Source of the DNA: Escherichia phage ELT3 | Reading direction: 5' to 3' (one strand) | DNA: 64,000 bases | Sequence record: PQ368571 | Shown: piece after piece, positions 21 through 44,020 of the stretch | Position numbering within the stretch: position 1 is the first letter of the stretch | How the letters are laid out: every line of letters starts with the position of its first letter | The notes under the pieces: model-generated | What the model was told of the DNA's origin: nothing | What the model saw: only the letters and a program-made list of their open reading frames with translations | The model's database searches: none | Position numbers and translations under genes: made by a program

Positions 21-80
21 TTGACTTACAGAATCCAACATTGCATAATACTCCCATTCCAAACAAAAGGAGAATCAAAG
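21..80 (+). promoter_or_regulatory. Early promoter cassette (TTGACT-N17-CATAAT) with conserved leader and RBS AGGAGAATCA before ATG at 81
   Basis: -35 at 21-26, -10 at 44-49; leader 'ccaaacaaaaggagaatcaaag' shared with other cassettes in window. Confidence 0.6.
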
Positions 81-353
81 ATGAACAACGAAAACAGCAA
101 AGTGTTAGCAATTGCAAATAAAGTAGGTTACTGGAAATGCTGGGATGATATGGAGAAATTAGGCGGTCGCTATCTCGATAACTTAGAGTTGCATTATTGC
201 CAAGCGCGTAATGCAGAAGTTGCGGGAGTAGCAATTGAAGATATTCCGTCTAAAGTCTTCGGATTCTCTAAAGATGATACTCTAGAATATGTTTTCAAGG
301 ATGTTATGGATCAAGCATGGGAAGACGCAGAGACACGCGCTCTTGATTGGTGA
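81..353 (+). CDS. hypothetical early protein (90 aa)
   Basis: ORF begins at ATG directly after conserved leader/RBS; the upstream in-frame extension in the ORF track overlaps the promoter. Confidence 0.55.
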   Translation: MNNENSKVLAIANKVGYWKCWDDMEKLGGRYLDNLELHYCQARNAEVAGVAIEDIPSKVFGFSKDDTLEYVFKDVMDQAWEDAETRALDW

Positions 354-357
354 TAAT

Positions 358-519
358 ATGAACTGGTATAAAATTTGGAAAAATCAGGTGGAGGCTTATC
401 TAGGGTATAAGCCCACCGACAAAGAATTACTTGATGCAATGTACGAAGACGGACTAAATCCGAAAGTAGCCGCGCAAGAATACGCGGAATGGGTGAAGGT
501 CGAAAATAATTTAAAATAG
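358..519 (+). CDS. hypothetical small protein (53 aa)
   Basis: ATG 4 nt after stop of preceding ORF; track ORF 289..519 trimmed to this internal Met. Confidence 0.35.
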   Translation: MNWYKIWKNQVEAYLGYKPTDKELLDAMYEDGLNPKVAAQEYAEWVKVENNLK

Positions 520-522
520 TTG

Positions 523-580
523 TTGACGTAAAGAAATGGGAGTAGTATTATACTCCCATACCAAACGAAAGGAGAATCAC
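523..580 (+). promoter_or_regulatory. PeSL-like early promoter cassette (-35 TTGACG, stem-loop GGGAGTA/TACTCCC enclosing -10 TATTAT, conserved leader)
   Basis: Inverted repeat gggagtagtattatactccc between -35 and ATG at 581. Confidence 0.65.
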
Positions 581-793
581 ATGAAATCTATCGAGCAAGT
601 AGTAACAGAGTTTATGAGCTACGAAGGAAACCGCATCTTTGGACGTTCTCAAGTTCGCGAGATCGTGGAAGAGGTCTCTGGAGAGTTTGCGGAATCTGGT
701 CACGTTATCACGCAAGAACGTAAAGAAGAAGCAGTAAACCAGATCATGGCTATGCAGAAAATGCGTATTAATGCACGAGCGGGTAAAAATTAA
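581..793 (+). CDS. hypothetical early protein (70 aa)
   Basis: ORF following cassette leader and RBS. Confidence 0.55.
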   Translation: MKSIEQVVTEFMSYEGNRIFGRSQVREIVEEVSGEFAESGHVITQERKEEAVNQIMAMQKMRINARAGKN

Positions 794-800
794 AAAGTAG

Positions 801-862
801 TTGACACCGGATTAAGGGAGTAGTAAGATACTCCCATCAAGAAAAACATTGAGGAATATATT
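801..862 (+). promoter_or_regulatory. PeSL-like early promoter cassette (TTGACA-N17-TAAGAT within stem-loop gggagtagtaagatactccc)
   Basis: Same stem-loop sequence recurs at 26690 and 35913. Confidence 0.65.
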
Positions 863-1663
863 ATGAAAAACATTATCGCTGCTATCGTTCTTTCTGCTAC
901 TGCTTTCGGTGCTAACGCTGCGTCCTTTGATTGCGCTAAAGCGACTACCAAATCAGAGAAGTTTATTTGTGCTAACGAGTCTATCTCCGCACTGGATTCG
1001 AAACTTCATGAAGTATATGTTAAGGCTGTTAAGATTGATCCGTCTCTGAAACAAGAGCAACGCAACTGGAATAAAACTGTTCGTGACACAATGATCAATA
1101 TCGGGCAGATTCAGCCACTGGAGGCTGTATACAACGCTCAAATTCAAAACTTGATGAGTGTATTATCTAAAGAAGAAACCGCGTCAGGGAGCGTTTCAGA
1201 GACTTCTGCGAAGGTTGAAGAAGAACAACCGAAACAGGAAGAAAAAGTGGTGGAAGAACAGAAGAAAGAAGAGAAAATCTCTGGGTCTATCACTTACCAG
1301 TGCATTGCAAAATTTACATGGAAAATCATTGATGGTATTGAAACAGACAGCCGCAAAGATCCATTGTATGGCAACTCTACTTATGGCAACAAGGGCGGCA
1401 AGCTGAAAATGACCATGACCGAAGGTGAATTGTCTTCTTTCGTATATGTTGATGAGCGCGAAGTGTTTAAATCAAATCTGACACGCAGCAAACAATATAA
1501 AAATATGGTTGTTGGTATGAGCAAACCGGATGTAGCAGGATACTTCAACGAGTACAAAATGTGGGTAGGGGAAAACGATGAAATCCGCTTTGAAGTCATC
1601 GAGAAAGGTCGCATTAGCTATGATTATGGTACTCAATATGTTTGTGAATATAAGAAGGGTTAA
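863..1663 (+). CDS. secreted/periplasmic protein with N-terminal signal peptide and DUF1311 (LprI N-terminal)-like domain
   Basis: N-terminus MKNIIAAIVLSATAFGANA is signal-peptide-like; 'FDCAKATTKSEKFICANESISALDSKLHEVY...QRNW' fits the C..A.T..E..IC...LD..L..Y...QR.W pattern of DUF1311. Confidence 0.5.
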   Translation: MKNIIAAIVLSATAFGANAASFDCAKATTKSEKFICANESISALDSKLHEVYVKAVKIDPSLKQEQRNWNKTVRDTMINIGQIQPLEAVYNAQIQNLMSVLSKEETASGSVSETSAKVEEEQPKQEEKVVEEQKKEEKISGSITYQCIAKFTWKIIDGIETDSRKDPLYGNSTYGNKGGKLKMTMTEGELSSFVYVDEREVFKSNLTRSKQYKNMVVGMSKPDVAGYFNEYKMWVGENDEIRFEVIEKGRISYDYGTQYVCEYKKG

Positions 1664-1945
1664 ATGATGAAATTTAACAACATGAAGTTTAAAAAAGATT
1701 GGTGGGATGCTATGAGAGCTAACGACCGGATCGGAATTGGAAAGGCAGAAAAGACAGTTGTTATTGTCAAGTATAAAGCGACGCAAGATCTTTTGATTAA
1801 GGAACTCATTCGAGCGGGTAACTATCAAACACCGGAAGGTCTTATCGACATGATGGTTGATAACATGTATAGTGACGAACCACCAAACATTAAACAATTT
1901 TACAAGAAGTATTACCGAAAGTGGCAGAAGTACAACCGAAAATAA
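1664..1945 (+). CDS. hypothetical protein (93 aa)
   Basis: ORF contiguous with the preceding gene in the same transcription direction. Confidence 0.4.
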   Translation: MMKFNNMKFKKDWWDAMRANDRIGIGKAEKTVVIVKYKATQDLLIKELIRAGNYQTPEGLIDMMVDNMYSDEPPNIKQFYKKYYRKWQKYNRK

Positions 1946-1968
1946 GTTGTTGACGTGAGGATTATATT

Positions 1969-2160
1969 ATGGTAATTTTTAATCGCGATGGTATCATAGT
2001 TCGGCAGCACCCATTCCTTGAATACTATCAGGTTGAACAATGGGGATATGGGGATTGCTCGCGCTCATATGGTCAAAGCTGGGGATACCGGACAGTTTTT
2101 GAATCAACTAATATTGACAAAGTACGACAGAAAGTTTTAGAGCTTCTTAACGATAAGTGA
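1969..2160 (+). CDS. hypothetical protein (63 aa)
   Basis: ORF with RBS GTGAGGA upstream of ATG. Confidence 0.4.
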   Translation: MVIFNRDGIIVRQHPFLEYYQVEQWGYGDCSRSYGQSWGYRTVFESTNIDKVRQKVLELLNDK

Positions 2161-18618: not shown

Positions 18619-18645
18619 AGCCTCCCTTCGGGGAGGCTTTTTTAT
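18619..18645 (+). terminator. Intrinsic terminator after gene 32
   Basis: cctcccttcggggagg hairpin followed by a T-run. Confidence 0.7.
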
Positions 18646-18670
18646 TACCTAAAAATTTATGAAAAATGTG

Positions 18671-18698
18671 TTGACATGTTGGCGAGGTAATGTATAAT
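18671..18698 (+). promoter_or_regulatory. Sigma70-like early promoter (TTGACA-N16-TATAAT)
   Basis: -35 at 18671-18676, -10 at 18693-18698. Confidence 0.5.
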
Positions 18699-18734
18699 GA
18701 ACTAATCGAAACAACGGAGGATTAACAATGTTTT

Positions 18735-19058
18735 TTGAATGCTACCCTTTCCCAGAAAAGTGATAAAATCGAACTTCTGTATGTCATTGCTGATGTGGAC
18801 GTACAACGAAGAAATATAGATTTAAAAATTCACAAATATTATAATATGAGCGAATATCATGAAATCGAGATCCCACATAGTGTGTATCCTGCATTATTGT
18901 TAGGAAAAGGAAATCTAAGTGAATATTCTTTGAAAGTCATCAAAGATTCTAAATCAATGCTTGCTCATATGGAAAAAGATTTTCTTGATGAAGTTTCCGC
19001 GCTAGTTATTAAACTGAAAGAAGAAACAGCACCGCTTTTCATGGAACAAAAAGGTTGA
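18735..19058 (+). CDS. hypothetical protein (107 aa); start ambiguous (TTG start, or ATG at 18728 in another frame across a T6 run)
   Basis: RBS GGAGG precedes ATG at 18728, which is followed by TTTTTT; the long ORF is in the adjacent frame. Confidence 0.4.
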   Translation: MNATLSQKSDKIELLYVIADVDVQRRNIDLKIHKYYNMSEYHEIEIPHSVYPALLLGKGNLSEYSLKVIKDSKSMLAHMEKDFLDEVSALVIKLKEETAPLFMEQKG

Positions 19059-19082
19059 CAGCGTAACGCAATAGTGTATAAT
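19055..19082 (+). promoter_or_regulatory. Sigma70-like early promoter (TTGACA-N16-TATAAT)
   Basis: -35 at 19055-19060, -10 at 19077-19082. Confidence 0.5.
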
Positions 19083-19113
19083 ACAAACATCAAAACAAAG
19101 AGAGGATTATATT

Positions 19114-19443
19114 ATGTGGACTGTAGAACAAATCGTAGATGAAAAAGTAAGTATTATCTCATGCGGCACTATTGAAGAATGCCTTAAAGCCGCTAACCGT
19201 GAATGTATTACGGTTTATGAAGCCCGTCGCGGTGATGGTACTGTGTTAACCAGCGACTATCGATATGAACCAAAAATGATTACCTTTCGTTTTTGGGAAC
19301 ATGGTGTTAATGTTGGGGTATCTCACTTAAAACGTTTTCGTGATTATTCAGACCGTTATTTCATCACACCGGATAACGGTCAAGAATTTAAGACAGCAAT
19401 CACAGAAGAAAATGTAAACGAAAACTATTTCAAACTGATTTGA
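19114..19443 (+). CDS. hypothetical protein (109 aa)
   Basis: ORF with RBS GAGAGGA; lies between gene 32 and frd. Confidence 0.45.
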   Translation: MWTVEQIVDEKVSIISCGTIEECLKAANRECITVYEARRGDGTVLTSDYRYEPKMITFRFWEHGVNVGVSHLKRFRDYSDRYFITPDNGQEFKTAITEENVNENYFKLI

Positions 19444-21654: not shown

Positions 21655-23898
21655 ATGATTAAAAATGTTGTTAAGTCTTCCGGTCTGACTGTTCCGTTTG
21701 AAAAAGAAAAAGTAATGAAAATTCTGGAAGCGGCAGCCGAAGGTCATAACGTTGATCCATATGAATTGTTTGATATGGTTGAACCACTTCTGACAGAAGG
21801 TATGTCTACCAATGATATCCAGAAAGTATTGATTAAGGTCGCAGCAGATAACATTACTGTCGAAACACCCGATTATCAATATGTAGCAAGTAACCTTGCA
21901 ATGTTCGCGCTTCGTAAATCAGTATACGGTCAATTCCAACCGATTGATTTTTACAGCCATATTGAGCGTAATATTGCAACCGGAAAATATGATCGCGAAA
22001 TTCTGCAAAAGTATTCCCGTGAAGAAGTGGAATATCTGGAGAAATTCATCGACCATAAACTTGATTTTAAAATGACCTATGCTGGTGCGATGCAGTTAAA
22101 AGAGAAATATCTTGTTCAGGATCGCAGCACTAAGAAAATCATCGAAACACCGCAATTTGCGTATATGCTGATCGGTATGTGCTTACATCAAGAAGAGACA
22201 GAAAATCGACTTGAACATGTGATTGATTTTTATAATGCTGTTGCGAATAAGCAAATCTCTCTGCCTACTCCGATTATGGCGGGTGTGCGTACTCCAACAC
22301 GACAATTTAGTTCGTGTGTGGTGATTGAAAGTGATGACTCATTGCAGGGTATTAATGAAACCGCAAATGCAATCATTAAGTATATTAGCAAGCGTGCTGG
22401 TATCGGTATCAACGCTGGCATGATTCGCGCGGAAGGATCTAAGATCGGGCATGGTGAAGTTCGTCATACTGGCGTTATCCCATTCTGGAAACATTTTCAG
22501 ACTGCCGTTAAGTCATGCTCACAAGGCGGTATTCGTGGCGGGGCAGCGACTCTCTATTACCCAATGTGGCATTTAGAATTTGAAAGTCTTATTGTGTTGA
22601 AGAATAACAAAGGGGTAGAAGATAACCGCATTCGTCATCTTGACTACGGCGTACAGATTAATAACCTGATGGTAGAGCGATTCCTTAAACGGGATTACAT
22701 TACTCTGTTTAGTCCAGATGTTGCGGGTGGCTTGTTGTGGGATCTGTACTTCCGAGATGAGGAAGGTTTCCGCCAGCTTTACGAAAAACTGGAAAAAGAT
22801 CCGAGTGTTCGTAAAACTCGTGTTAAAGCCGAAGACCTGTTTTTAGCGGTGGCAATTGAACGTTTTAACACTGGTCGAATCTACCCAACGTTCACAGACA
22901 ACATGAACAATCACGGGGCGTTTATTCGTAATGTAGCACCGATTAAACAATCTAACCTGTGTTGTGAAATTGCACTGCCTACTAAACCGATGGGTCGTGA
23001 TGATTCAGAGATCAGCCTATGCACTTTGGCAGCATATGTTTTAGGTAATTTCGATATCGAAAACATGGAAGAAGTAGAACGCATTGCTATGGTTATGGTG
23101 CGTGCACTTGACAACCTGTTAGATTATCAGGATTATCCTGTAGAACAAGCTCTGACAGCCAAAAAACGTCGCTCTCTGGGTGTTGGTGTTACTAACTTTG
23201 CATCATATCTAGCAGATAATTTCTTCACGTATGAAGACGCTAACGAGTTTACGCATAAAACGTTTGAACGCTTGCAATATGCTCTGATTAAGGCTAGTGT
23301 GCGACTGGCTAAAGAGAAGGGTGCTTGCGAACTGATGCACGAAACACGCTATGGTCGCGGTGAACTTCCTATCGACTGGTACAAAAAGACAGTAGATGAA
23401 CTGGTTGATCCGGTGTATGAGATGGATTGGGAAGAACTGCGCGAAGACCTGAAAAAATATGGCATTCGTAACAGTACGCTTTCGGCGCTGATGCCCTGTG
23501 AGTCGTCTTCTCAGGTGTCTAACAGCACAAACGGTATTGAACCGCCTCGCGGGATTGTATCGGTTAAAGGATCGAAAGAAGGGCAATTTAATCAGGTTAT
23601 TCCGAACGTAGAGAATAATGCTGATGTTATTGACCTGCTTTGGACACTGATCAAGAAAGGTAACAAGCCTTATCTGACACTGGCAGCGATCATGCAGAAG
23701 TTTGTGGATCAGGCGATTAGTTCCAATACATCCTATGATCCAAGCACTTATAAGACTGGTAAAGTCGATATTGCTGATGTGTTAGATGATATGTTGTTCG
23801 CTCAACATTACGGTCTGAAAACCCTGTATTATGCGAACGTTCGCGACGGTGCAGATGGTACGGAAGACGCTATCGAGTGCTCATCTTGCAAGCTGTAA
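21655..23898 (+). CDS. nrdA: ribonucleoside-diphosphate reductase large subunit
   Basis: 747 aa; class Ia RNR alpha motifs (N-terminal ATP cone, SNLC.EI, C-terminal C..CKL); synteny with nrdB. Confidence 0.9.
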   Translation: MIKNVVKSSGLTVPFEKEKVMKILEAAAEGHNVDPYELFDMVEPLLTEGMSTNDIQKVLIKVAADNITVETPDYQYVASNLAMFALRKSVYGQFQPIDFYSHIERNIATGKYDREILQKYSREEVEYLEKFIDHKLDFKMTYAGAMQLKEKYLVQDRSTKKIIETPQFAYMLIGMCLHQEETENRLEHVIDFYNAVANKQISLPTPIMAGVRTPTRQFSSCVVIESDDSLQGINETANAIIKYISKRAGIGINAGMIRAEGSKIGHGEVRHTGVIPFWKHFQTAVKSCSQGGIRGGAATLYYPMWHLEFESLIVLKNNKGVEDNRIRHLDYGVQINNLMVERFLKRDYITLFSPDVAGGLLWDLYFRDEEGFRQLYEKLEKDPSVRKTRVKAEDLFLAVAIERFNTGRIYPTFTDNMNNHGAFIRNVAPIKQSNLCCEIALPTKPMGRDDSEISLCTLAAYVLGNFDIENMEEVERIAMVMVRALDNLLDYQDYPVEQALTAKKRRSLGVGVTNFASYLADNFFTYEDANEFTHKTFERLQYALIKASVRLAKEKGACELMHETRYGRGELPIDWYKKTVDELVDPVYEMDWEELREDLKKYGIRNSTLSALMPCESSSQVSNSTNGIEPPRGIVSVKGSKEGQFNQVIPNVENNADVIDLLWTLIKKGNKPYLTLAAIMQKFVDQAISSNTSYDPSTYKTGKVDIADVLDDMLFAQHYGLKTLYYANVRDGADGTEDAIECSSCKL

Positions 23899-23906
23899 AA
23901 TAAGTG

Positions 23907-23966
23907 TTGACGCGGGGAGAAATCCCCGCTATAATACAACCATCAAAAACAAGTGAGGATTTTATT
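23907..23966 (+). promoter_or_regulatory. PeSL-like early promoter cassette (TTGACG, stem-loop gcggggagaaatccccgc, -10 TATAAT)
   Basis: -35 at 23907-23912, -10 at 23930-23935, stem-loop between them. Confidence 0.6.
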
Positions 23967-24134
23967 ATGACCAAATTAAAATGTGTTGCTGTAGATTTTT
24001 AGCTAGCTGATAGCTTTGTTGTCGGTGATGAATATGATGCTCGAAATGATGGGGCTTGCTACTACGTTGAGGATGAATATGGCGTAGAATGGGCTATTCT
24101 TCCTGATGATAAATGCTTTGAGGTTGTCGAATAA
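23967..24134 (+). other. Small ORF interrupted by an in-frame amber (TAG) codon at 24000..24002 (11 aa, then 44 further in-frame codons)
   Basis: ATG follows cassette leader/RBS; frame stays open after the TAG up to TAA at 24132. Confidence 0.35.
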
Positions 24135-26126: not shown

Positions 26127-26136
26127 TGTTTGTTCA

Positions 26137-26166
26137 AAGTCGCCCAATAGTGGCGACTTTTTTTGT
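26137..26166 (+). terminator. Intrinsic terminator
   Basis: agtcgcccaatagtggcgact hairpin followed by a T-run. Confidence 0.6.
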
Positions 26167-26175
26167 TATTGGGTG

Positions 26176-26226
26176 TTGACAATCGGATCTTGCCATAGCA
26201 TAATACACATCGAAACGGAGGAACAT
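26176..26226 (+). promoter_or_regulatory. Early promoter (TTGACA-N17-CATAAT) with cassette-type leader
   Basis: -35 at 26176-26181, -10 at 26199-26204; leader 'acatcgaaacggaggaacat'. Confidence 0.55.
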
Positions 26227-26445
26227 ATGGAAACAGAAGAACAAGTCATTGCATATTTTCATCGTAAAAAGATGAAACTTAGAATCGAAAAGCAGTACAT
26301 CAATCACTACATTGACCGAGTTCACTTAACAAGTACACCTTACCTATTCCGGTTGATAAACCCTAGAAAACGGTGGGAGAAGTTGGATAGAAACACAAAA
26401 ATAATTGATAAGCTAACCCAATGGTGGAATGAATACAACAAGTAA
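26227..26445 (+). CDS. hypothetical protein (72 aa)
   Basis: ATG after promoter leader; the longer track ORF would overlap the promoter. Confidence 0.45.
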   Translation: METEEQVIAYFHRKKMKLRIEKQYINHYIDRVHLTSTPYLFRLINPRKRWEKLDRNTKIIDKLTQWWNEYNK

Positions 26446-26452
26446 AAAGTAG

Positions 26453-26519
26453 TTGACACTGAATAACGGGGGTAGTAATATACCCCCATCGAAACGAAAT
26501 ACACTTTAAGGAGAATCAA
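26453..26519 (+). promoter_or_regulatory. PeSL-like early promoter cassette (stem-loop gggggtagtaatataccccc)
   Basis: TTGACA at 26453, -10 TAATAT at 26476, conserved leader ...gaaacgaaat...aaggagaatcaa. Confidence 0.6.
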
Positions 26520-26669
26520 ATGAACAACTTTGACGCGGTACTGAAAATGGCAATCGAAACTTACGCGGAGATCTCCGGCGAGAAAGTAGAGGACATTATC
26601 AAAGAATGTCAGAATTTTGAAAGCCAGACAGCCAAGAATGTTCAAATGTTGATGTTTGCGGTTGCATAA
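26520..26669 (+). CDS. hypothetical small protein (49 aa)
   Basis: ORF immediately after cassette RBS. Confidence 0.45.
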   Translation: MNNFDAVLKMAIETYAEISGEKVEDIIKECQNFESQTAKNVQMLMFAVA

Positions 26670-26678
26670 AAAAAGCAG

Positions 26679-26740
26679 TTGACAGCATATCACGGGAGTA
26701 GTAAGATACTCCCATACCAAAACAACTAAGGAGTATCAAG
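26679..26740 (+). promoter_or_regulatory. PeSL-like early promoter cassette (stem-loop gggagtagtaagatactccc)
   Basis: TTGACA at 26679, -10 TAAGAT at 26702. Confidence 0.65.
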
Positions 26741-27139
26741 ATGATTAAATTTCAAACTCGCAAAGACGTTCTGGACTTCGTTAAAGTTTTCGGTTACGCT
26801 GCATTGCAACATGCAATGGACAAAATGACCATCTCCCCAGATCAGACTATGCTGATCCGTATGGTTAAAGCAACCGCCTACAAAAACGACATTACCCTCT
26901 CAGAAATCAACGACGGTAATACTGTTCGCGAGGTAATTGTTTCTTTCGAATCACCGAAAATTGGCGGTTTTCATACCACGATGTTAGGTGAAATCACTGT
27001 CACTGTATACGGGCAAGGTGGCGGAGTGTTTACCGTCAAAGAAGCAATGGAAAACGGAACACTAAACAAAGAAAAACTGGAATTTGTCCTGAAAATCATC
27101 AAGGAGCGTAACGAAGCTCGCGATATTCTGGAAAGTTAA
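26741..27139 (+). CDS. hypothetical protein (132 aa)
   Basis: ORF after cassette; followed by a terminator. Confidence 0.5.
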   Translation: MIKFQTRKDVLDFVKVFGYAALQHAMDKMTISPDQTMLIRMVKATAYKNDITLSEINDGNTVREVIVSFESPKIGGFHTTMLGEITVTVYGQGGGVFTVKEAMENGTLNKEKLEFVLKIIKERNEARDILES

Positions 27140-34525: not shown

Positions 34526-34539
34526 TTCAAAAAAAGTTG

Positions 34540-34602
34540 TTGACAGGGGATCACCGATCCCCTATACTACACACATACCGAAACGAACTAGGAGAATCAA
34601 TT
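34540..34602 (+). promoter_or_regulatory. PeSL-like early promoter cassette (stem-loop ggggatcaccgatcccc)
   Basis: TTGACA at 34540, -10 TATACT at 34563, conserved leader ACACATACCGAAACGAA...AGGAGAATCAA. Confidence 0.65.
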
Positions 34603-34782
34603 ATGAACTTCAACGAAATCATCGCTAAAATCCGCTACAACGAAGAAACCATTGAACTGATGCAAAACAATATCACCAATGGTTATATGATTGCAGCGTC
34701 ACAAGAAATCATTGATTTGACGGTAGCAGAAAATGCTCAGTTGAAACATCAACTTTCAACGGCTGGCGTGATTGTTATGTAA
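34603..34782 (+). CDS. hypothetical small protein (59 aa)
   Basis: ATG after cassette leader. Confidence 0.45.
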   Translation: MNFNEIIAKIRYNEETIELMQNNITNGYMIAASQEIIDLTVAENAQLKHQLSTAGVIVM

Positions 34783-35366: not shown

Positions 35367-35660
35367 ATGGAACATACTAATTTGTTTGTAGCCGAACCTT
35401 TCGTTGAAGGCAATAAAAATCTTGCTAATACCGTTATTCTTTATGAAGATTGGATCTTTTACATCGACGAGCATTTAGATGTATTTTGTCGCACAGATAA
35501 AAGTGACCAATTTCCAATTGAAAAAAATCGAACATCAAATCATTGGTACGGCGGGAATGACGAAACCGACCTAGCTATTGTTCTCGAATCAGGCGTAGAA
35601 TCTGAACATGCCAATGAAGTGGCAGACAAATTTATGAAATACGCATATAAAGCATTATAA
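35367..35660 (+). CDS. hypothetical protein (97 aa)
   Basis: RBS GAGGAAA before internal ATG of track ORF 35310..35660. Confidence 0.4.
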   Translation: MEHTNLFVAEPFVEGNKNLANTVILYEDWIFYIDEHLDVFCRTDKSDQFPIEKNRTSNHWYGGNDETDLAIVLESGVESEHANEVADKFMKYAYKAL

Positions 35661-35665
35661 AGTTG

Positions 35666-35728
35666 TTGCCAGGGGATCGGTGATCCCCTATAATACACAC
35701 ATACCAACGAGATATAGGAGAATCAAAA
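35666..35728 (+). promoter_or_regulatory. PeSL-like early promoter cassette (TTGCCA, stem-loop ggggatcggtgatcccc, -10 TATAAT)
   Basis: -35 variant at 35666, -10 at 35689. Confidence 0.6.
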
Positions 35729-35896
35729 ATGTTCCAGACTAAAGCAGAATGCGAAGCATACATTGTAGCAAATCACGGTGAAGACTACCTGAAATTCGAT
35801 ATCGTAGTGGCACAGAAGATCACCGGAATGGTTGCAAAATATCTGGGTGTTAAAGAAGGTTACTATCCTAGCAACGCACCAGAAATTAACAAATAA
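35729..35896 (+). CDS. small protein (55 aa), near-identical paralog of 38985..39152
   Basis: MFQTKAECEAY...GYYPSNAPEINK versus MFETKAACEAY...GYYPSNAPEINK. Confidence 0.55.
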   Translation: MFQTKAECEAYIVANHGEDYLKFDIVVAQKITGMVAKYLGVKEGYYPSNAPEINK

Positions 35897-35898
35897 TA

Positions 35899-35960
35899 GT
35901 TGACAATGATTAAAGGGAGTAGTAAGATACTCCCATCAAGACAACAAACGGAGAATCAAA
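35899..35960 (+). promoter_or_regulatory. PeSL-like early promoter cassette (stem-loop gggagtagtaagatactccc)
   Basis: TTGACA at 35899, -10 TAAGAT at 35923. Confidence 0.65.
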
Positions 35961-36140
35961 ATGAAAGCTATCGAAGTTCAGAAGTACATGGAACTCATCA
36001 TTGAAGGTAAAGCACATACAGTATTGACTACCCACGTAGGATATGATAAAAATGTGCATATGCTGGTAGACAATATCGGTTGGATGAAGTTTAATCCTAA
36101 CGAGAATGTACAAGCTCAAGAAATGACCATCCCTTTCTAA
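35961..36140 (+). CDS. hypothetical small protein (59 aa)
   Basis: ATG after cassette leader. Confidence 0.45.
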   Translation: MKAIEVQKYMELIIEGKAHTVLTTHVGYDKNVHMLVDNIGWMKFNPNENVQAQEMTIPF

Positions 36141-37152: not shown

Positions 37153-37435
37153 TATTATGTTCAAAGTAGGTGATAAGTTTATTCTTAGTCGTGATATTAT
37201 CCCTAATCTGAAAGGTTGTATCATCAATCCTAGTAAAAATTCATGGTTTTATCTGTTTATCGACGACAAACTGAATGTACGCGCCGAATATAAAGAAGGT
37301 CTTCGCACTGGCCTCGGTTTCTTTAACGATCACGATCATAGCCATTGGCTAAACGGTGGATTCGAAGCAACGGTGCTCGCGGTTGATGTGACCTACACAA
37401 ACATCATAGAAAAATATCAAAAAATTATTTTATAA
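37142..37435 (+). CDS. HxHW-family small protein (member 4)
   Basis: HDHSHWLNGGFEATVLAVDV motif. Confidence 0.55.
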   Translation: MRTNIMFKVGDKFILSRDIIPNLKGCIINPSKNSWFYLFIDDKLNVRAEYKEGLRTGLGFFNDHDHSHWLNGGFEATVLAVDVTYTNIIEKYQKIIL

Positions 37436-37441
37436 AAAGTG

Positions 37442-37516
37442 TTGACATAAGATCGGGTGTATAGCATAATACACCCATCGAAACGAGATACACTTTCTAA
37501 CTAGGAGAATCAAATT
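37442..37516 (+). promoter_or_regulatory. PeSL-like early promoter cassette (stem-loop gggtgtatagcataatacaccc)
   Basis: TTGACA at 37442, -10 CATAAT at 37465. Confidence 0.65.
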
Positions 37517-37804
37517 ATGGCATACATCACCATCACTCTGAAAGTTAACAAATTTGCTCACGCTGCACACGAAACCGATAATGCAATCCGTAACAACAAG
37601 TTCGCACGTCTGGTACGCGATGCGGTAGCTAAAGAGTTCAACTTCAAATTTGCCGATGGTAAAGTTATCACTAAATGGACTCATGACGGCGAAACTAAAG
37701 TAGAACTTGCTGACAACTTCGCAAATCAGGAATATGCACACCGTCGCATTAATGAAATTATCAGCGATGAACTCTACTACGGTGTACAGGAAGGACTGTT
37801 TTAA
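37517..37804 (+). CDS. hypothetical protein (95 aa)
   Basis: ORF after cassette; terminator downstream. Confidence 0.5.
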   Translation: MAYITITLKVNKFAHAAHETDNAIRNNKFARLVRDAVAKEFNFKFADGKVITKWTHDGETKVELADNFANQEYAHRRINEIISDELYYGVQEGLF

Positions 37805-38161: not shown

Positions 38162-38168
38162 TTTTATT

Positions 38169-38194
38169 AGCCGACCTTAGTGTCGGCTTTTTTA
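38169..38194 (+). terminator. Intrinsic terminator
   Basis: agccgaccttagtgtcggct followed by tttttt. Confidence 0.65.
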
Positions 38195-38218
38195 TTGCAT
38201 AAAATTTTAAAAAAGGCA

Positions 38219-38287
38219 TTGACACCAGATCACGCCTATAGCATAATACACACATCGAAACGAGATACCACTTAGGAGAATCAAACA
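38219..38287 (+). promoter_or_regulatory. Early promoter cassette (TTGACA-N17-CATAAT) with conserved leader
   Basis: -35 at 38219, -10 at 38242. Confidence 0.6.
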
Positions 38288-38557
38288 ATGGCACTGACTA
38301 AAACCACTACCAACTTTGCAAAACGTCACGGCTTCGACCTTGAACTCAATAGCTTTGAAGATTACACTCTTCTGTGTGTATATGAAATCGAAAATGATTG
38401 CGAGTGGATGTTCAGCTATCGCGTAAACGAAGACGGATCTTTCACTTGGAACGGAAATATCTATCTTGCACAGGAAGTAAAAGAAGAACTTCCGGCGACT
38501 ATCAAAGATGAGAAACATTTACGTCAAGTTTTAAAATTTATTTCTGAAAATATCTAA
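38288..38557 (+). CDS. hypothetical protein (89 aa)
   Basis: ORF after cassette. Confidence 0.5.
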   Translation: MALTKTTTNFAKRHGFDLELNSFEDYTLLCVYEIENDCEWMFSYRVNEDGSFTWNGNIYLAQEVKEELPATIKDEKHLRQVLKFISENI

Positions 38558-38564
38558 AAAGTTG

Positions 38565-38626
38565 TTGACACCAAAGTAAGAACATAGCATAATACACCCA
38601 TACCGAAACGAACTGGAGAATCAAAA
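38565..38626 (+). promoter_or_regulatory. Early promoter cassette (TTGACA-N17-CATAAT) with conserved leader
   Basis: -35 at 38565, -10 at 38588. Confidence 0.6.
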
Positions 38627-38908
38627 ATGAAATTCATCAAAGCAACCGAAATCCTGAAAAACAAAGAAGCATACATCGGAAACATCGTTGGTATGAACAT
38701 TCGCGGTGCTGGTAGCCAGTGGACCAAACTGGTTGATGTTAAAGCTAAAGGCGATAAAATCGAGTTCACTGTAAAAATGCTTACTCATAACGCACATATG
38801 GGTATCAAGACAAAAACGATGGCAGCAGATAAAAGCATCAACTATCAAGATCTGGGCGATTGGCTGAACTGGTGCAAAATGCACAACATCGAAACTAATC
38901 ACGAATAA
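38627..38908 (+). CDS. hypothetical protein (93 aa)
   Basis: ORF after cassette. Confidence 0.5.
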   Translation: MKFIKATEILKNKEAYIGNIVGMNIRGAGSQWTKLVDVKAKGDKIEFTVKMLTHNAHMGIKTKTMAADKSINYQDLGDWLNWCKMHNIETNHE

Positions 38909-38922
38909 TTTTAAAAAAGTTG

Positions 38923-38984
38923 TTGACGGGGATCGGGAGATCCCCTATAATACACACATACCGAAACGAAATAGGAGAATCAAA
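38923..38984 (+). promoter_or_regulatory. PeSL-like early promoter cassette (stem-loop ggggatcgggagatcccc)
   Basis: TTGACG at 38923, -10 TATAAT at 38946. Confidence 0.65.
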
Positions 38985-39152
38985 ATGTTCGAGACTAAAG
39001 CAGCATGTGAAGCATATATCATTGAAACCTACGGTGAAGATTATCTGAAATTTGACATTGTAGTAGCACAGAAGATTGTAGGGATGGTTGCGAAATACCT
39101 CGGAGTTAAAGAAGGTTACTATCCTAGCAACGCACCAGAAATTAACAAATAA
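38985..39152 (+). CDS. small protein (55 aa), near-identical paralog of 35729..35896
   Basis: Duplicated gene including its promoter cassette. Confidence 0.55.
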   Translation: MFETKAACEAYIIETYGEDYLKFDIVVAQKIVGMVAKYLGVKEGYYPSNAPEINK

Positions 39153-39166
39153 TTTTATAAAAAGTG

Positions 39167-39235
39167 TTGACAGGGGAGGATAACTCCCCTACAATACAAC
39201 CATCAAGACGAGATACCACTTAGGAGAATCAAACA
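39167..39235 (+). promoter_or_regulatory. PeSL-like early promoter cassette (stem-loop ggggaggataactcccc)
   Basis: TTGACA at 39167, -10 TACAAT at 39190. Confidence 0.65.
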
Positions 39236-39487
39236 ATGGCTAACATCGAAACCGCAAAGAAAATCGCTAAAGACCTGAACGTTAAAGGCTTCCGTAAACT
39301 GAAATTACAGCGTGTACGCTACACCATCGGCAAACAGTGCTCTTTCATGAGCGAAGAAGTTGCTAACAGCCTGATTGATAACCTGATTGCGGCTGGCTGG
39401 GAAGTTGCGGATCTGAAAACTTGCCGCGAACTGGCTAACAAAGGTCTTTTAGATTCTGTTACTATCAAACCAATGGGGGCAGCGTGA
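39236..39487 (+). CDS. hypothetical protein (83 aa), first gene of a translationally coupled operon
   Basis: ORF after cassette; stop overlaps the next start. Confidence 0.5.
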   Translation: MANIETAKKIAKDLNVKGFRKLKLQRVRYTIGKQCSFMSEEVANSLIDNLIAAGWEVADLKTCRELANKGLLDSVTIKPMGAA

Positions 39488-40771: not shown

Positions 40772-40772
40772 C

Positions 40773-41291
40773 ATGAACCGTTTAACGCCTAAACGCCGTT
40801 ACTATACCAATACTAAAAACTTTGTCATCTCTGTTTATGATGCATGGTTAGAAGATGGCTATATCAACATGAACCCAGATTATCAGCGTCCTTTAGTATG
40901 GGACACCGAAAACAAACGTATGTTTATCGAAAACCTGATTAATGATTTTCCGGTTGGTGCTATCGCAATGGCTAAGATTGATGATGGCTCTCGCTATGAG
41001 ATCGAAATCGTGGACGGTAAACAGCGTTTAAACGCAATATTCTCCTTTATGAAGGATGAGTTTAGCATTGCTTGTAATGATGATTCTATGTTGTATTACA
41101 GTGATTTTACGCCAGCAGAAAAGCGACGTTTCCGAAATCTCGGACTACCCGCGATCATGATGGAAGAGAGCACACGAGAAGACCGATTAGAGTATTTCTA
41201 CAAAACAAACTTTTTCGGTGTGCCTCAATCGGAAGAACATCGCCAGCATGTGATTGCCCTATTGCAAGATGAGCAATTAAAAAATAACTAA
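40773..41291 (+). CDS. DUF262 (ParB/Srx-like NTPase domain) protein
   Basis: DYQRPLVW and IVDGKQRLNAI motifs (DUF262 hallmarks (Y)QR..VW and DGQQR). Confidence 0.5.
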   Translation: MNRLTPKRRYYTNTKNFVISVYDAWLEDGYINMNPDYQRPLVWDTENKRMFIENLINDFPVGAIAMAKIDDGSRYEIEIVDGKQRLNAIFSFMKDEFSIACNDDSMLYYSDFTPAEKRRFRNLGLPAIMMEESTREDRLEYFYKTNFFGVPQSEEHRQHVIALLQDEQLKNN

Positions 41292-41299
41292 AAAATTTG

Positions 41300-41360
41300 T
41301 TGACAGGGGATCATCGATCCCCTATAATACACCCATACCGAAACGAAAGGAGAATCAAAC
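41300..41360 (+). promoter_or_regulatory. PeSL-like early promoter cassette (stem-loop ggggatcatcgatcccc)
   Basis: TTGACA at 41300, -10 TATAAT at 41323. Confidence 0.65.
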
Positions 41361-41540
41361 ATGAAACAATTAACCATCGAATCGGCAATCATCGCAATCG
41401 CTAAAGTTCAAGCGGCTTATAATTGCACTGACATTGAAGCCATTTCAAAAATGCAAGCAGAAGCCGCAAAAGCAGGTGACGAGAAATCTTTAGATGTTCT
41501 CTGCGAAATCAAAGCAGAATTAATTTCAAAAATGTTCTAA
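41361..41540 (+). CDS. hypothetical small protein (59 aa)
   Basis: ORF after cassette. Confidence 0.45.
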   Translation: MKQLTIESAIIAIAKVQAAYNCTDIEAISKMQAEAAKAGDEKSLDVLCEIKAELISKMF

Positions 41541-41545
41541 AAGTT

Positions 41546-41611
41546 GTTGACATAACAGAGGGTGTATATCATAATACACCCATACCGAAACGAACTACTA
41601 AGGAGTATCAA
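41546..41611 (+). promoter_or_regulatory. PeSL-like early promoter cassette (stem-loop gggtgtatatcataatacaccc)
   Basis: TTGACA at 41546, -10 CATAAT at 41570. Confidence 0.65.
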
Positions 41612-41824
41612 ATGGCTAACATCGAAATCATCATTACCGACGTAACTTATGACCGCATTAACGAAATCGGTACTGCATTACTGGAAGATGGAACAACTCG
41701 TACCATCAACTACGCAGAATACGTTGAAATGCGTGGTTGTATTAAACGAGTAGGAAAATATATCCTGATTGAAAAAGACTATTCAGGATACACCTTAGAG
41801 CAATTGCTTGATGGTGCATTATAA
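41612..41824 (+). CDS. hypothetical protein (70 aa)
   Basis: ORF after cassette; terminator downstream. Confidence 0.5.
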   Translation: MANIEIIITDVTYDRINEIGTALLEDGTTRTINYAEYVEMRGCIKRVGKYILIEKDYSGYTLEQLLDGAL

Positions 41825-41829
41825 TAAAT

Positions 41830-41849
41830 GGGGCGTTAAGCCCCGTTTT
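41830..41849 (+). terminator. Intrinsic terminator
   Basis: ggggcgttaagccccgtttt. Confidence 0.6.
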
Positions 41850-41890
41850 CATAAATATAGGTTTATAGGTTATCAACTAGAGGATATAAA

Positions 41891-43942
41891 ATGTTTAACT
41901 TAGAAATCGACGATCTAATGATTGAATCTTTCGAGAAATGGCTGTTGACGGAAGAGGAAGAAAACTTTGGCAGTATTGCTCCGGTACAGTGCTTAAAGCC
42001 TAAGCAGAATCCTAAACAGCTTTTTGCAGTACAGACACGCGATAAAGATGTGATTGTCCGTCTTTGTAACTTCACCAACAAAACACCTAAAATCATTCGT
42101 ATGGGTGACAAGACCGCACATGTTGTACTGTGCGAAATGAACAAAAGCGGTCGTATTGTACAGCTTAAAAATGGTCTAGGCGATAACCCGATTGCAGTTA
42201 TGGCAAGTGCTTTTGATGTGGTTATGGAAACAGCCCGTAAAGCGCAATTAGACGCTGTTATGTTCCGTTTTAACGTATCCCGCATGAAAGGTAAGACCGA
42301 ACTGGTTAAGCGCGTTATAGAGCGTTTGGTGCGTCGTACACCGAAGTTTGAAGTATTCCAGCAGGAAGTAATGACCAGCAAAAAGATCGCTTTAGTTGTT
42401 GTCAAGCGTCGCGGGATGGCGATTGATAAGATTAAAGGGATTAAACTTGATGAATCCTTGTTCACTAAAGTAGAAAGTGATTTAGGTGATCGCTGGGTAT
42501 CTAAGGCTACTGGTGAATCTCTGACTAAAGATGAGGCGTATGCGGCTAGTCTTGTGTCAGAAGAAGAACGAAACGCGGAAGCAGAACAACGCGTAGCGGC
42601 TAAATCTCGTTTGACTAAAGAAGAAATGCTGAAAACTCAAGCGACCTATAACAGCGACTACGTGAATCATCCAGAAAAAATTAATCTTAAACCGGAAGAA
42701 GATATCACCGAAGCAGAACCTAAGAAACAGTTTAATACTCTGATTGACCGTCAAGCCTTAGAACGTTCAACCGCCCGTTCTCTGAATGACTGGACAAGTG
42801 ATATTATCACTCGCTATGGTTTCATGCGTACTATTTTTGAAAGCGAAGCCGATGCAAAATACGCAGTAAGCGAACTGGTAAAAGTTCAGGATCAATATGA
42901 TCCGTTGTCTGCGGAAGTTATCGCAGCATCAATCAAACGCTTAAAAGAAATCATGAGCGAGGAAGTATTTGAAAACAAGATCACCGCCCTGGCAATGGAT
43001 CGAGTAGACCAGTCTATGCCAGCAGATGTAAAAGCTGAAATGCTGCGTAGTCATATCACCCAGATTAAAACCGATGCCCTTCGTAATGTTGCGTCCGGTA
43101 TGTTTGAAGCAATTGCTAGCAACATGGGTGAAATGATGGCAGATATTGATCTTGATCTGCCGGGCGCGGAAGGTTTTGTGTTGAGCGAATATGCCGATGC
43201 AGCATACATCAATATGAACAACTTCCTAACTGATCGCAAGCTGGAAGAGTTTGAGGGAATCGCAGATCCAGAAGAATTGGTCAAGATGTGCGATGCACTG
43301 GATAATGCCTTCTCTAACTATGGTGTTAAACTTGATCCGGGTACTATTCTGTATCGTGGTATGGACTTCCGGTCGCAAATGTGGGAAACTGCACGTAAGC
43401 AAAAAGCGTTTTACTTTAAAAACTATGTGAGCACTTCCCTTGCACCTAACATTTTTGGTGGCTGGAATGCAAACGTGGCTAGTGCCATTGCTGGTGTTGA
43501 TTCTATGGCTGGCTCTCGCGGTGAAGGTGGCGCTAATGTTGCTTTCTCCATTGCTGGCGCGGAAAACATCCCTGTATTGCCAGTAGGTAACAAAGCATTT
43601 GCTTACAAAGAATGCGAGATTTTACTTCCTCGCGGTGTTGTGTTATCCTTTGATACGGTAACTCGTGCTACTGCATCGACGGATTCACAAGAAACTTATT
43701 ACATCGAGGCACATATTATGAACAAAAATGAACTGGCAGCATTACAAGAATCTGGCGAGATGATCGCGGACGGCGATGCATTCATCCGTGAAGGTGTTGT
43801 TAAACCTGCTTCTGACCTGTCTTTCTCCAGATTTATTACCGAAGCTAAAACCGAACGTAAGAAAGCAGATAAGGCAACTCTACGTCAGCTTATCGCTGAT
43901 CTGGTATCTGTAGACGCAATGCCAGATAAATTTAAAATGTAA
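41891..43942 (+). CDS. alt: ADP-ribosyltransferase Alt (packaged RNA polymerase-modifying enzyme)
   Basis: 683 aa (T4 Alt is about 682 aa); ART motifs YRG, STS (YVSTSLAP), ExE (ECEILLPRG); similarity to T4 Alt as recalled (LFTKVES.LGD, FYFKNYVSTSL.PNIFGGW). Confidence 0.85.
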   Translation: MFNLEIDDLMIESFEKWLLTEEEENFGSIAPVQCLKPKQNPKQLFAVQTRDKDVIVRLCNFTNKTPKIIRMGDKTAHVVLCEMNKSGRIVQLKNGLGDNPIAVMASAFDVVMETARKAQLDAVMFRFNVSRMKGKTELVKRVIERLVRRTPKFEVFQQEVMTSKKIALVVVKRRGMAIDKIKGIKLDESLFTKVESDLGDRWVSKATGESLTKDEAYAASLVSEEERNAEAEQRVAAKSRLTKEEMLKTQATYNSDYVNHPEKINLKPEEDITEAEPKKQFNTLIDRQALERSTARSLNDWTSDIITRYGFMRTIFESEADAKYAVSELVKVQDQYDPLSAEVIAASIKRLKEIMSEEVFENKITALAMDRVDQSMPADVKAEMLRSHITQIKTDALRNVASGMFEAIASNMGEMMADIDLDLPGAEGFVLSEYADAAYINMNNFLTDRKLEEFEGIADPEELVKMCDALDNAFSNYGVKLDPGTILYRGMDFRSQMWETARKQKAFYFKNYVSTSLAPNIFGGWNANVASAIAGVDSMAGSRGEGGANVAFSIAGAENIPVLPVGNKAFAYKECEILLPRGVVLSFDTVTRATASTDSQETYYIEAHIMNKNELAALQESGEMIADGDAFIREGVVKPASDLSFSRFITEAKTERKKADKATLRQLIADLVSVDAMPDKFKM

Positions 43943-43959
43943 TTTTTAAGAAATAATGG

Positions 43960-44020
43960 TTGACTCAAACGGGGACTAGTTTTATACTAGCCCCGTTTTC
44001 TGTTATATGGGAGGCTTAAA
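43960..44020 (+). promoter_or_regulatory. PeSL-like promoter cassette overlapping a terminator hairpin (stem ggggactagt...actagcccc)
   Basis: TTGACT at 43960, -10 TATACT at 43983; hairpin followed by a T-run. Confidence 0.55.

Follow-up and report, generated by a model that had tools for sequence, protein, structure and literature searches.

The short gaps between early genes of the phage studied here carry a repeated module that, judged by its sequence and position, is the PeSL of RB49-like T4-type coliphages, an early-promoter/stem-loop cassette already in the literature and ordinary in kind. We analysed one stretch of 64,000 nucleotides from Escherichia phage ELT3 (sequence record PQ368571; hereafter the window), which belongs to a Krischvirus (RB49-like coliphage) with 95-98% identity to Phi1, RB49, GEC-3S and ELT4. 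Collinear alignment with Phi1 and RB49, at 94-98% identity, put the cassettes into corresponding intergenic gaps, among them 206/205, 193/191 and 212/209, as positional orthologues of the PeSLs that Arbiol, Comeau, Kutateladze, Adamia and Krisch described there (2010, Genome Biol Evol 2:140; PMC2839356). The initial annotation had noted a resemblance to RB49-like PeSLs, and this is borne out by the identity of the phage and by the shared loci: the window cassettes are very probably PeSLs (promoter-early stem-loops), which in RB49-like T4-type phages form compact regulatory units between genes. A known RNA family or tRNA was rejected as an identity for the module, as Rfam at gathering thresholds gave 0 matches and ARAGORN 0 genes.

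Few concrete proposals exist for a shuffling of accessory genes in large lytic phages that does without a dedicated recombinase, and PeSLs are among them. The window adds one more genome with the published pattern, along with several clean presence/absence events in newer Krischvirus isolates, and leaves that picture unchanged. Two modest points go beyond the literature: most stems overlapping the -10 box are without any U-run, and the leader looks like a RegB site (see below).

Copies and architecture of the cassette

Searched with an nhmmer profile made from 15 copies, the window yields 18 cassettes at E<0.01, every one on the + (early) strand, with -35 boxes starting at 21, 523, 801, 19055, 23907, 26176, 26453, 26679, 34540, 35666, 35900, 37442, 38219, 38565, 38923, 39167, 41300 and 41547 (by which we refer to them), in keeping with the at least 17 copies initially claimed. 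Motif counts and a repeat search likewise place the module far above chance: CATACCGAAACGAA occurs exactly five times on the + strand and six times at up to two mismatches (0.53 expected), GTTGAC-N16-19-TANAATAC occurs six times (0.00 expected), and the repeats fall into families with 10, 7, 7 and 4 copies. Eleven cassettes lie within 34.5-41.6 kb among hypothetical ORFs, and the late-gene blocks (tail-fibre, baseplate) gave 0 profile matches. This agrees with the published PeSLs, most of which precede ORFans in hyperplastic regions and lie on the early strand. The same profile has 35 matches in Phi1, all on the Phi1 early strand. An independent scan also called 18/18 profile copies promoter-like with a 17-nt spacer, and the GEC-3S annotation has promoters at orthologous sites; a literature search for start sites of transcription in Krischvirus returned no paper.

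The cassettes sit in gaps of 70-90 nt between small ORFs and open with an AT-rich tract (AAAAAGTTG type); TTGACA and the -10 box follow, 17 nt apart, and then an A/C-rich leader, most often GGAGAATCAA, that runs up to the ATG. In the 18 copies and in a further element at 43960, the promoter is of the near-consensus sigma-70 TTGACA-N17-TATAAT type, always with a 17-nt spacer and with 10-12 of 12 hexamer positions in agreement, and GGAG or GAGG lies 6-9 nt 5' of the ATG (19/19). The upstream stop codon is 0-18 nt 5' of the -35 in the 15 copies that have no upstream terminator; at 19055 the TGA stop of the upstream ORF falls inside the -35 hexamer. A terminator separates stop and promoter at 26176 and 38219, and the copy at 21 is cut by the window start. 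Calling the leader near-invariant was an overstatement, since it is exact in only five copies and comes in about four variants (CATACCGAAACGAA; CATCGAAACGAG/A; CATCAAGAC; CATACCAAA), with GGAGAATCA present in 12/18 copies.

Two relatives of the cassette on the + strand depart from this scheme. A degraded half-cassette (1935..1971) consists of the AT-rich tract and TTGACG joined directly to GAGGATTATATTATG, without -10, stem or leader; it marks a breakpoint relative to Phi1, in which a 28-nt unit is triplicated. A diverged member (18619..18730, ATG 18728) has TTGACA-N16-TATAAT and the leader ATCGAAACAACGGAGG, its promoter being preceded by a UUCG-loop terminator after gene 32.

Hairpins in and around the promoters

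Internal hairpins of 7-8 bp, rich in GC and built as G-run/C-run palindromes, are found in 13/18 copies (dG -12 to -15 kcal/mol, z -2.2 to -5.4), each with a lower energy than at least 97% of the dinucleotide-shuffled versions of its sequence. Among eight other consensus-like promoter sites of the window 7/8 are without such a hairpin, and the remaining site (x15205) folds more weakly (-9.8 kcal/mol, z -2.9). The inverted repeat with its 3' arm over the -10, as first described, is therefore only partly general: a stem exists in 13 of the 18 copies and the three example stems quoted are all present in the window, but the overlap is confined to seven copies, six stems lie wholly in the spacer and five copies are stemless. 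Apart from the two copies without any stem, this distribution (six in the spacer, seven over the -10, three upstream of the -35) matches the PeSL scheme, in which a stable G-run/C-run stem-loop takes up one of five positions with respect to the promoter.

In the overlapping class, exemplified by GGGAGTAGTAAGATACTCCC, the 3' arm covers the -10. It comprises the copies at 523 (509..583, ATG 581; TGGGAGTA/TACTCCCA) and 26453 (26439..26522, ATG 26520; GGGGGTA/TACCCCC), three with GGGAGTA/TACTCCC at 801 (787..865, ATG 863; -10 TAAGAT), 26679 (26665..26743, ATG 26741) and 35900 (35886..35963, ATG 35961), and two with GGGTGTAT/ATACACCC at 37442 (37428..37519, ATG 37517; -10 CATAAT, leader of 40 nt) and 41547 (41533..41614, ATG 41612). 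Spacer stems occur at 23907, after nrdA (23893..23969, ATG 23967; GCGGGGA/TCCCCGC), where the downstream ORF is truncated in this phage, at 39167 (39153..39238, ATG 39236; AGGGGAG/CTCCCCT), as AGGGGATC/GATCCCCT at 34540 (34526..34605, ATG 34603) and at 41300 (41286..41363, ATG 41361; perfect TTGACA-N17-TATAAT), and as GGGGATC/GATCCCC at 35666 (35652..35731, ATG 35729; -35 TTGCCA), the PeSL206/205 orthologue, and at 38923 (38909..38987, ATG 38985).

The internal stem is absent from the other five. Canonical terminators (hairpin plus T-run) lie directly upstream of the copy at 26176 (26136..26229, ATG 26227), where the terminator at 26136-26160 is followed by TTGACA-N17-CATAAT, and of that at 38219 (38169..38290, ATG 38288), with a terminator at 38169-38188 and a decayed internal stem. 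The copy at 21 (8..83, ATG 81) has TTGACT-N17-CATAAT after the AT-rich tract, then the leader and GGAGAATCAAA; its Phi1 orthologue has an upstream terminator in the region that the window start cuts off. No hairpin whatever accompanies promoter and leader at 19055 (19041..19116, ATG 19114) and 38565 (38551..38629, ATG 38627).

The element at 43960 (43946..44023, + strand, ATG 44021) lies behind the alt stop at 43942 and precedes an Alt-like ORF, ORF183. Its TTGACT-N17-TATACT promoter is embedded in a hairpin of -20 kcal/mol (ACGGGG(A)CTAGT/ACTAGCCCCGT) with the T-run TTTTCTGTT behind it; the profile missed it because its leader is unrelated. Its membership of the family, as proposed in the initial annotation, thus stands for the promoter within a terminator-like hairpin and fails for the leader, and the fold and T-run make a role as putative alt terminator plausible. 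A GC hairpin with a U-run was otherwise found only in the separate terminators upstream of 26176 and 38219: the internal stems are followed by only 0-3 T in 8 nt (sense strand), and a terminator scan of the + strand called none of them terminator-like.

These features suggest how the cassette may work. Extending over the entire gap between the stop of one small early gene and the ATG that follows, it would offer unmodified host RNA polymerase an AT-rich tract and a near-consensus sigma-70 promoter (TTGACA-N17-TAnnAT) for initiation right after infection, and the short, unstructured A/C-rich leader with its strong GGAG Shine-Dalgarno would favour efficient translation. We infer that transcription starts ~7 nt past the -10, at the A of CAT and just beyond the 3' arm, which would put the GC hairpin wholly upstream of the start and hence leave it out of the cassette's own mRNA. 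It would form only in read-through transcripts from upstream, which it may attenuate, terminate (predicted also for the -10-overlapping stems) or stabilise at the 3' end, insulating cassette from cassette. In the experiments of Arbiol et al. a single clone carrying wild-type PeSL206/205, the orthologue of the copy at 35666, had a promoter activity of ~13,000 Miller units, and the PeSL211/210 stem cut lacZ expression about as strongly as rrnB T1; the stem assayed was only of the spacer type, GGGGATC...GATCCCC (PMC2839356).

Comparison of the stems among relatives bears on whether they are selected as RNA. There are 32 distinct stem sequences, 24 of them perfect, and compensatory changes preserve pairing (AU to GC via GU intermediates; UA/GC to GC/AU). 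With a single compensatory pair for one class of stem and two for the other class, stemming from few independent events, strong proof by covariation was dropped. Six internal mismatches were found, all G.T on the sense strand. The idea that the stems serve as Dam sites was rejected too: the window shows no avoidance of GATC (352 occurrences, 339 expected), and although the spacer stems hold two GATC sites, the excess in cassette cores (11 versus ~5 expected) is too weak.

Indels and paralogues at the cassettes

Cassette-flanked genes had been predicted to vary among relatives, and comparison of the window with relatives confirmed this, with breakpoints that we observe inside the cassettes themselves. 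Within 31-45.5 kb, 6/7 indels among nine relatives have both ends inside cassettes, and four further breakpoints relative to Phi1/RB49 elsewhere in the window also lie within them. These sites include the copy at 801, followed by a 266-aa ORF (breakpoint versus Phi1 and RB49), 26453, where the Phi1 ORF227 cassette is missing from the window, 38219 (presence/absence of ORF195/196) and 38923 (presence/absence of ORF192, which Arbiol et al. illustrate in their Fig. 3). Loss at the cassette pairs around 38985-39152 and 41361-41540 is seen in Brandy, JK32 and PHB13. The copy at 34540, where ORF210 or ORF211+210 may be present or absent, is a left/right chimera of the two Phi1 cassettes that flank ORF210, PeSL212/210 and PeSL210/209, and is what the loss of ORF210 left behind. 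To some extent, breakpoints within promoter regions between genes are to be expected anyway, since indels elsewhere would not leave a viable phage.

The presence of many cassette-flanked paralogous families, also proposed at the outset, was rejected. All-against-all blastp of the cassette-led ORFs returned one pair, the ORF205-like and ORF191-like genes at 35729 and 38985 (87% amino-acid identity), which are the only cassette-borne duplicates; the seven more pairs in the wider ORF set are mostly tandem genes without a cassette in between.

The copies share 50-100 nt of near-identical direct repeats, at which the phage's own homologous-recombination machinery may cross over, so that flanked genes would be deleted, inserted or swapped; in the relatives, mini-circles arise by exchange between one PeSL and another (PMC2839356). 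Recombination would in this case be passive. The hairpin could instead act as DNA, with an extruded cruciform or the GGGG...CCCC motif being recognised or cleaved by a phage recombination protein, for instance endonuclease VII, or by some other binding protein, and recombination would then be targeted. Arbiol et al. themselves raised this speculation (PMC2839356), and both the concentration of breakpoints in cassettes and the G-run/C-run palindromes speak for it; we nevertheless regard it as improbable. The mismatches mentioned above are A.C on the other strand, an asymmetry to be expected of an RNA or single-strand fold and not of a symmetric duplex site; crossovers fall anywhere along the shared 58-97 nt, leader included, and not at the stem; and the stemless cassette at 38219 is a breakpoint as well. 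Arms of 7-8 bp are, moreover, short for cruciform extrusion.

Still less likely is that the GC palindrome mainly tunes its own promoter towards shut-off, through sensitivity to supercoiling or to a phage-changed RNA polymerase (Alt/ModB ADP-ribosylation, anti-sigma factors), with no action on upstream transcripts: the stems do lie within the promoter, at either of two set distances from the -10, the strength of wild-type PeSL promoters stands in the way of cloning them (PMC2839356), and Alt is encoded in the window (the relative Phi1 also has ModB and Srd), but three copies have a terminator 5' of the promoter in place of the internal stem, which fits a role on upstream transcripts, the isolated PeSL211/210 stem reduces downstream expression behind a foreign promoter, and the wobble-pair asymmetry favours an RNA fold.

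The leader and likeness to known systems

RegB/S1-sensitive Shine-Dalgarno regions of T4 early mRNAs have the 11-nt consensus GGAGRAYARAA, in which position 8, an A, ranks among the three most strongly conserved (Durand et al. 2006; PMC1702504), and the cassettes likewise place GGAG and then an A-rich tract before early genes. Their block GGAGAAUCAAA agrees with the consensus at 10/11 positions, position 8 being C in every cassette and not A. The form GGAGAATCAAA is found in 10 cassettes, again with 10/11 in agreement, the copies being homologous and hence not independent. Such 10/11 sites number 16 among the 209 GGAG sites in the window, and 10 of these 16 are in cassettes. The regB gene is annotated in Phi1 (phi1p094), at a place outside the window and with GGATAATAAAA as its own Shine-Dalgarno, and RB49 RegB was reported to be active. 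We tentatively raise the possibility, from sequence agreement, that GGAGAAUCAAA is a candidate RegB/S1 cleavage site, i.e. a third cassette function, and that the sense-strand G.U bias reflects hairpins selected as RNA. If so, each cassette-borne early gene would carry a programmed mRNA shut-off signal besides promoter and insulator. The PeSL papers mention neither a RegB-site leader nor a sense-strand G.U bias.

The closest system is that of Phi1 and RB49, with which the window shares genus and loci (Phi1 ORFs 264-182), the order of stop codon, AT-rich tract, TTGACA-N17-TATAAT, Shine-Dalgarno and ATG, a G-run/C-run stem-loop that lies within the spacer, covers the -10 or sits upstream, and the indels at ORF192, ORF210, ORF211 and ORF195/196, with no essential difference (PMC2839356). 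Particular to the window are its own combination of genes, without ORF210, ORF211, ORF192, ORF195/196 and ORF227, and the TTGCCA -35 of its PeSL206/205 orthologue. The PeSLs and PmSLs of T4/PST and KVP40/nt-1 (Comeau, Arbiol and Krisch 2014; PMC4122927) are likewise composite promoter-terminator repeats in hyperplastic regions, likewise tied to indels and likewise accompanied by degraded half-elements. They differ in promoter consensus (TTTACW..., TTGYVH..., Mot boxes) and in having AT-richer stems upstream of the promoter (PMC4122927), and are analogues of the window cassettes, not sequence homologues.

Morons of lambdoid phages and integron gene cassettes are further cases in which a single gene moves together with the signals for its expression. 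Morons differ in that movement via their flanking signals is not thought to occur. Integrons need an integrase and attC sites, whereas PeSL cassettes have, to our knowledge, no dedicated recombinase, and here the regulatory repeat would itself be the recombination substrate.

A recurrent promoter cassette ahead of early ORFs

The 34000-42000 region matched 63 phage records, all of them RB49-like coliphages of the genus Krischvirus (98.2% identity to ELT4, ~95% to Phi1 and GEC-3S), and the 14600-34600 region followed the same pattern, with a top match of 97.5%. By blastn the window aligns collinearly along its whole length, in inverted orientation, to Phi1 160047-93684 and the corresponding RB49 segment. 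Annotation carried over from Phi1 and RB49 puts the small early ORFs (264-255) at 1-4 kb. The late tail-fibre genes 37-34 follow at 4.9-14.5 kb on the minus strand, and the plus strand carries an early block from 14.6 to 45.3 kb (rnh, 32, frd, td, nrdA, nrdB, denA, rnlA, pseT, cd, 31, ligase, and ORFs 212-182, alt among them); baseplate and head genes lie beyond 45.3 kb. Within gene 37 (distal tail fibre), segment 6376-6716 gave no alignment to Phi1 at the blastn settings used and is probably a host-range variable region.

The initial annotation had described at least 17 copies of a cassette before early ORFs, and this recurrence is confirmed by counts far over expectation. An nhmmer profile built from 15 copies detected 18 at E<0.01. 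All are plus-strand, and the minus strand of the window gave no significant match. The leader word CATACCGAAACGAA has five exact plus-strand occurrences and six with up to two mismatches (0.53 expected), six instances of the promoter pattern GTTGAC-N16-19-TANAATAC were counted where none was expected, and a repeat search of the window returned overlapping families of 10, 7, 7 and 4 copies. Every copy, named here by the position at which its -35 hexamer starts (e.g. c34540), fills the gap from one ORF's stop codon to the next ORF's ATG. Unless a separate terminator intervenes, 0-18 nt separate the upstream stop codon from the -35 hexamer; in c19055 that stop is the TGA within TTGACA. Across cassettes the ATG follows 48-76 nt downstream of the -35 start.

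The order of elements is an AT-rich tract (AAAAAGTTG), TTGACA, 17 nt, TAnnAT, AC(A/T/C)C(C/A)CAT, an A/C-rich leader, a Shine-Dalgarno sequence, 6-9 nt and the ATG; the spacer is 17 nt in all copies, and an independent consensus scan likewise lists all as promoter-like. The leader varies more than the "near-invariant" one first described, falling into about four variants, with GGAGAATCA in only 12 of 18 copies. In c35666, the orthologue of Phi1 PeSL206/205 (the promoter-early stem-loop between ORFs 206 and 205), the -35 (35666-35671) reads TTGCCA versus TTGACA in all relatives examined; clones of PeSL206/205, a very strong promoter, usually acquired -35 or -10 point mutations (Arbiol et al., PMC2839356). 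Downstream of c23907, the first gene (Phi1 ORF233 homologue, 23967-24002) ends after 11 codons in this phage because TAG replaces the GAA of Phi1/RB49, a two-base change.

The conserved leader block GGAGAATCAAA matches 10 of 11 positions of GGAGRAYARAA, the RegB/S1 target consensus of T4 early mRNAs (PMC1702504), and 10 of the 16 such matches across the window's 209 GGAG sites fall in cassettes. The regB gene is present in Phi1, with GGATAATAAAA as its own Shine-Dalgarno, such sites are reported to be cleaved by RB49 RegB, and the PeSL papers (PMC2839356, PMC4122927) make no mention of RegB. This reading may add to the literature. However, the block carries a C at position 8, where A is strongly preferred in T4 sites, GGAG with an A-rich stretch behind it is in any case a good ribosome-binding site, and the copies are not independent evidence because they are homologous. 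We regard the block as a candidate RegB/S1 cleavage site, albeit a rather doubtful one.

Stem-loops and terminators

Folding 46 nt from each -35, with z scores against dinucleotide shuffles, revealed a GC-rich 7-8 bp hairpin in 13 of 18 copies (-12 to -15 kcal/mol, z -2.2 to -5.4). Of the window's other consensus-like promoter sites, eight were folded as well; seven lacked a comparable hairpin, and the eighth, x15205, folds more weakly (-9.8 kcal/mol, z -2.9). The stems occupy two registers: six sit in the spacer, immediately following the -35 (GGGGATC..GATCCCC, GGGGAG..CTCCCC, GCGGGGA..TCCCCGC) and seven overlap the -10 (GGGAGTA..TACTCCC, GGGGGTA..TACCCCC, GGGTGTAT..ATACACCC). These 46-nt folds gave no internal stem in c21, c26176, c38219, c19055 and c38565. 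A textbook hairpin and T-run terminator lies directly upstream of c26176 and c38219, and an upstream terminator is present in the Phi1 orthologue of c21, the window starting inside its T-run; for c19055 and c38565 neither internal stem nor upstream terminator was found. These placements correspond to the published stem-position classes of PeSLs (Arbiol et al., PMC2839356).

Surveyed across the window, Phi1, RB49 and a further six relatives, the stem-loops comprise 32 distinct forms, 24 of them perfect. Every one of the six internal mismatches is a G.T on the sense strand; two A.C mismatches lie at stem ends. At one pair of the GGGAGTA class, A-U gives way to G-C in three distinct sequences, with G-U intermediates present, and in the GGGTGTAT class two adjacent pairs change jointly (UA/GC to GC/AU). 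The latter class has lost the 5' arm and kept the 3' arm, which also serves as -10 and start-site region, in 10 of 18 distinct variants. This pattern, though drawn from few events, speaks more for a stem formed by the sense-strand RNA than for a symmetric site in duplex DNA.

None of the internal stems has a plus-strand T-run or was called terminator-like by the window scan. Attenuation by spacer-type stems is supported by assay of a close homologue: the PeSL211/210 stem, of the same GGGGATC...GATCCCC type as c34540, c35666 and c41300, cut lacZ expression about as strongly as rrnB T1 (Arbiol et al., PMC2839356); we only infer that -10-overlapping stems might act likewise.

The copy at 43960 escaped the profile because its leader is unrelated. 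Lying 18 nt past the alt stop codon, its promoter (TTGACT-N17-TATACT; the GEC-3S annotation has a promoter at the orthologous site) is embedded in a hairpin (-20 kcal/mol, z -5.9) that is followed by TTTTCTGTT. The start site would lie within the hairpin 3' arm, so that the terminator would fold in read-through alt mRNA and could not be made by the promoter's own transcript. The earlier reading, in which this copy doubles as the terminator for alt, is a reasonable prediction.

A second repeated regulatory element, the terminator AGCCnnCCTT(C/A)G(G/T)GnnGGC plus T6, occurs at 18616-18645, 38166-38195, 57334-57363 and 58489-58518, with a TTCG loop in three of the four and a consensus promoter within ~30-60 nt downstream of each. 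The hairpin GGGGCGTTAAGCCCC is present after the ORF198-like gene (37810-37824), where it precedes TTTTCATCC and is terminator-like on the plus strand by scan, and after the ORF185-like gene (41830-41844), where it precedes GTTTTCAT and received no plus-strand call; the latter copy is also followed by CATAAATATAG, resembling a late promoter, just ahead of alt.

Breakpoints and variable genes

Breakpoints relative to Phi1 and RB49 fall at 783-803 (in c801), 1928-1954 (in a degraded half-cassette), 18730-19048 (gene replacement between the promoter at 18671 and c19055), 26443-26524 (in c26453), 34506-34587 (in c34540), 38170-38266 (in c38219) and 38904-38908 (in c38923). Outside these elements lie only the variable segment of gp37 (6376-6716), a minor difference around 55960 and the left-hand boundary (1264) of an RB49-specific replacement. 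The half-cassette (1928-1959) consists of the AT-rich tract and TTGACG fused straight to the Shine-Dalgarno, and its 28-nt unit AGTACAACCGAAAATAAGTTGTTGAC is present once in the window versus three tandem copies in Phi1 (L004 34531-34640). At 18725-19050, a 326-bp segment with one small ORF stands in place of the 1.4-kb ORF240 (Phi1) or ORF239 (RB49); this short allele is common to 27 Krischvirus records, therefore constituting a two-allele cassette polymorphism with promoter elements at both boundaries. Following the gene 32 terminator/promoter, the ORF starts with ATG and T6 (18728-18737) versus T5 in phage MIZ6, a difference that shifts the frame after codon 2 and leaves an 11-codon ORF; this could be a homopolymer sequencing error or a real frameshift.

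Cassette-flanked genes are variably present among relatives, a point that the initial annotation had proposed to check: against nine relatives, the 31-45.5 kb region displays seven distinct indel events, six with both ends within cassettes (ORF210; ORF211+210; ORF195/196; ORF192; loss of the ORF191-like gene; loss of the ORF186-like gene). The exception is 39500-39727, an ORF189.1-like gene lost in JK32, whose ends lie outside cassettes. Junctions share 58-97 nt, as determined from overlapping alignment ends. Clustering of breakpoints at intergenic promoters is, however, partly expected whatever the mechanism, since viable indels need ends between genes. In c34540 the upstream part is that of Phi1 PeSL212/210 and the leader that of PeSL210/209, and by sequence this chimera is the product predicted for excision of the ORF210 mini-circle of Arbiol et al. 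(PMC2839356). In ELT4, a single annotated 465-bp CDS (L007 10759-11223), versus two cassette-separated ORFs (186, 185) in the window and Phi1, may be a mis-annotation.

Paralogues and published PeSLs

The association with many paralogous families stood for one pair, the ORF205-like and ORF191-like genes (87% aa identity), the sole paralogue pair among cassette-led ORFs, for which the whole cassette is duplicated. It did not hold for the other pairs, most of which are tandem and lack an intervening cassette (36412/36630, 24134/24307, 36832/37853, 2893/3340), alt/ORF183 being the exception.

The proposed resemblance to the PeSLs of RB49-like phages is supported by both architecture and orthology. 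Arbiol et al. 2010 (PMC2839356) defined PeSLs from Phi1, with 52 copies, and RB49, with 51, and their architecture is exactly that of the window cassettes; our profile, narrower than the published definition, finds 35 copies in Phi1, all on the early strand. The same study reported promoter activity of PeSL206/205, terminator activity for one PeSL stem and mini-circles formed by PeSL x PeSL exchange around ORF192 and ORF210, and put forward the modular-shuffling model, and Comeau et al. 2014 (PMC4122927) widened the concept to T4/PST and KVP40/nt-1, degraded half-elements included. Every testable defining feature of PeSLs was found in the window cassettes, and the finding is thus a correct re-identification: the cassettes are an already known element, here in a further Krischvirus phage.
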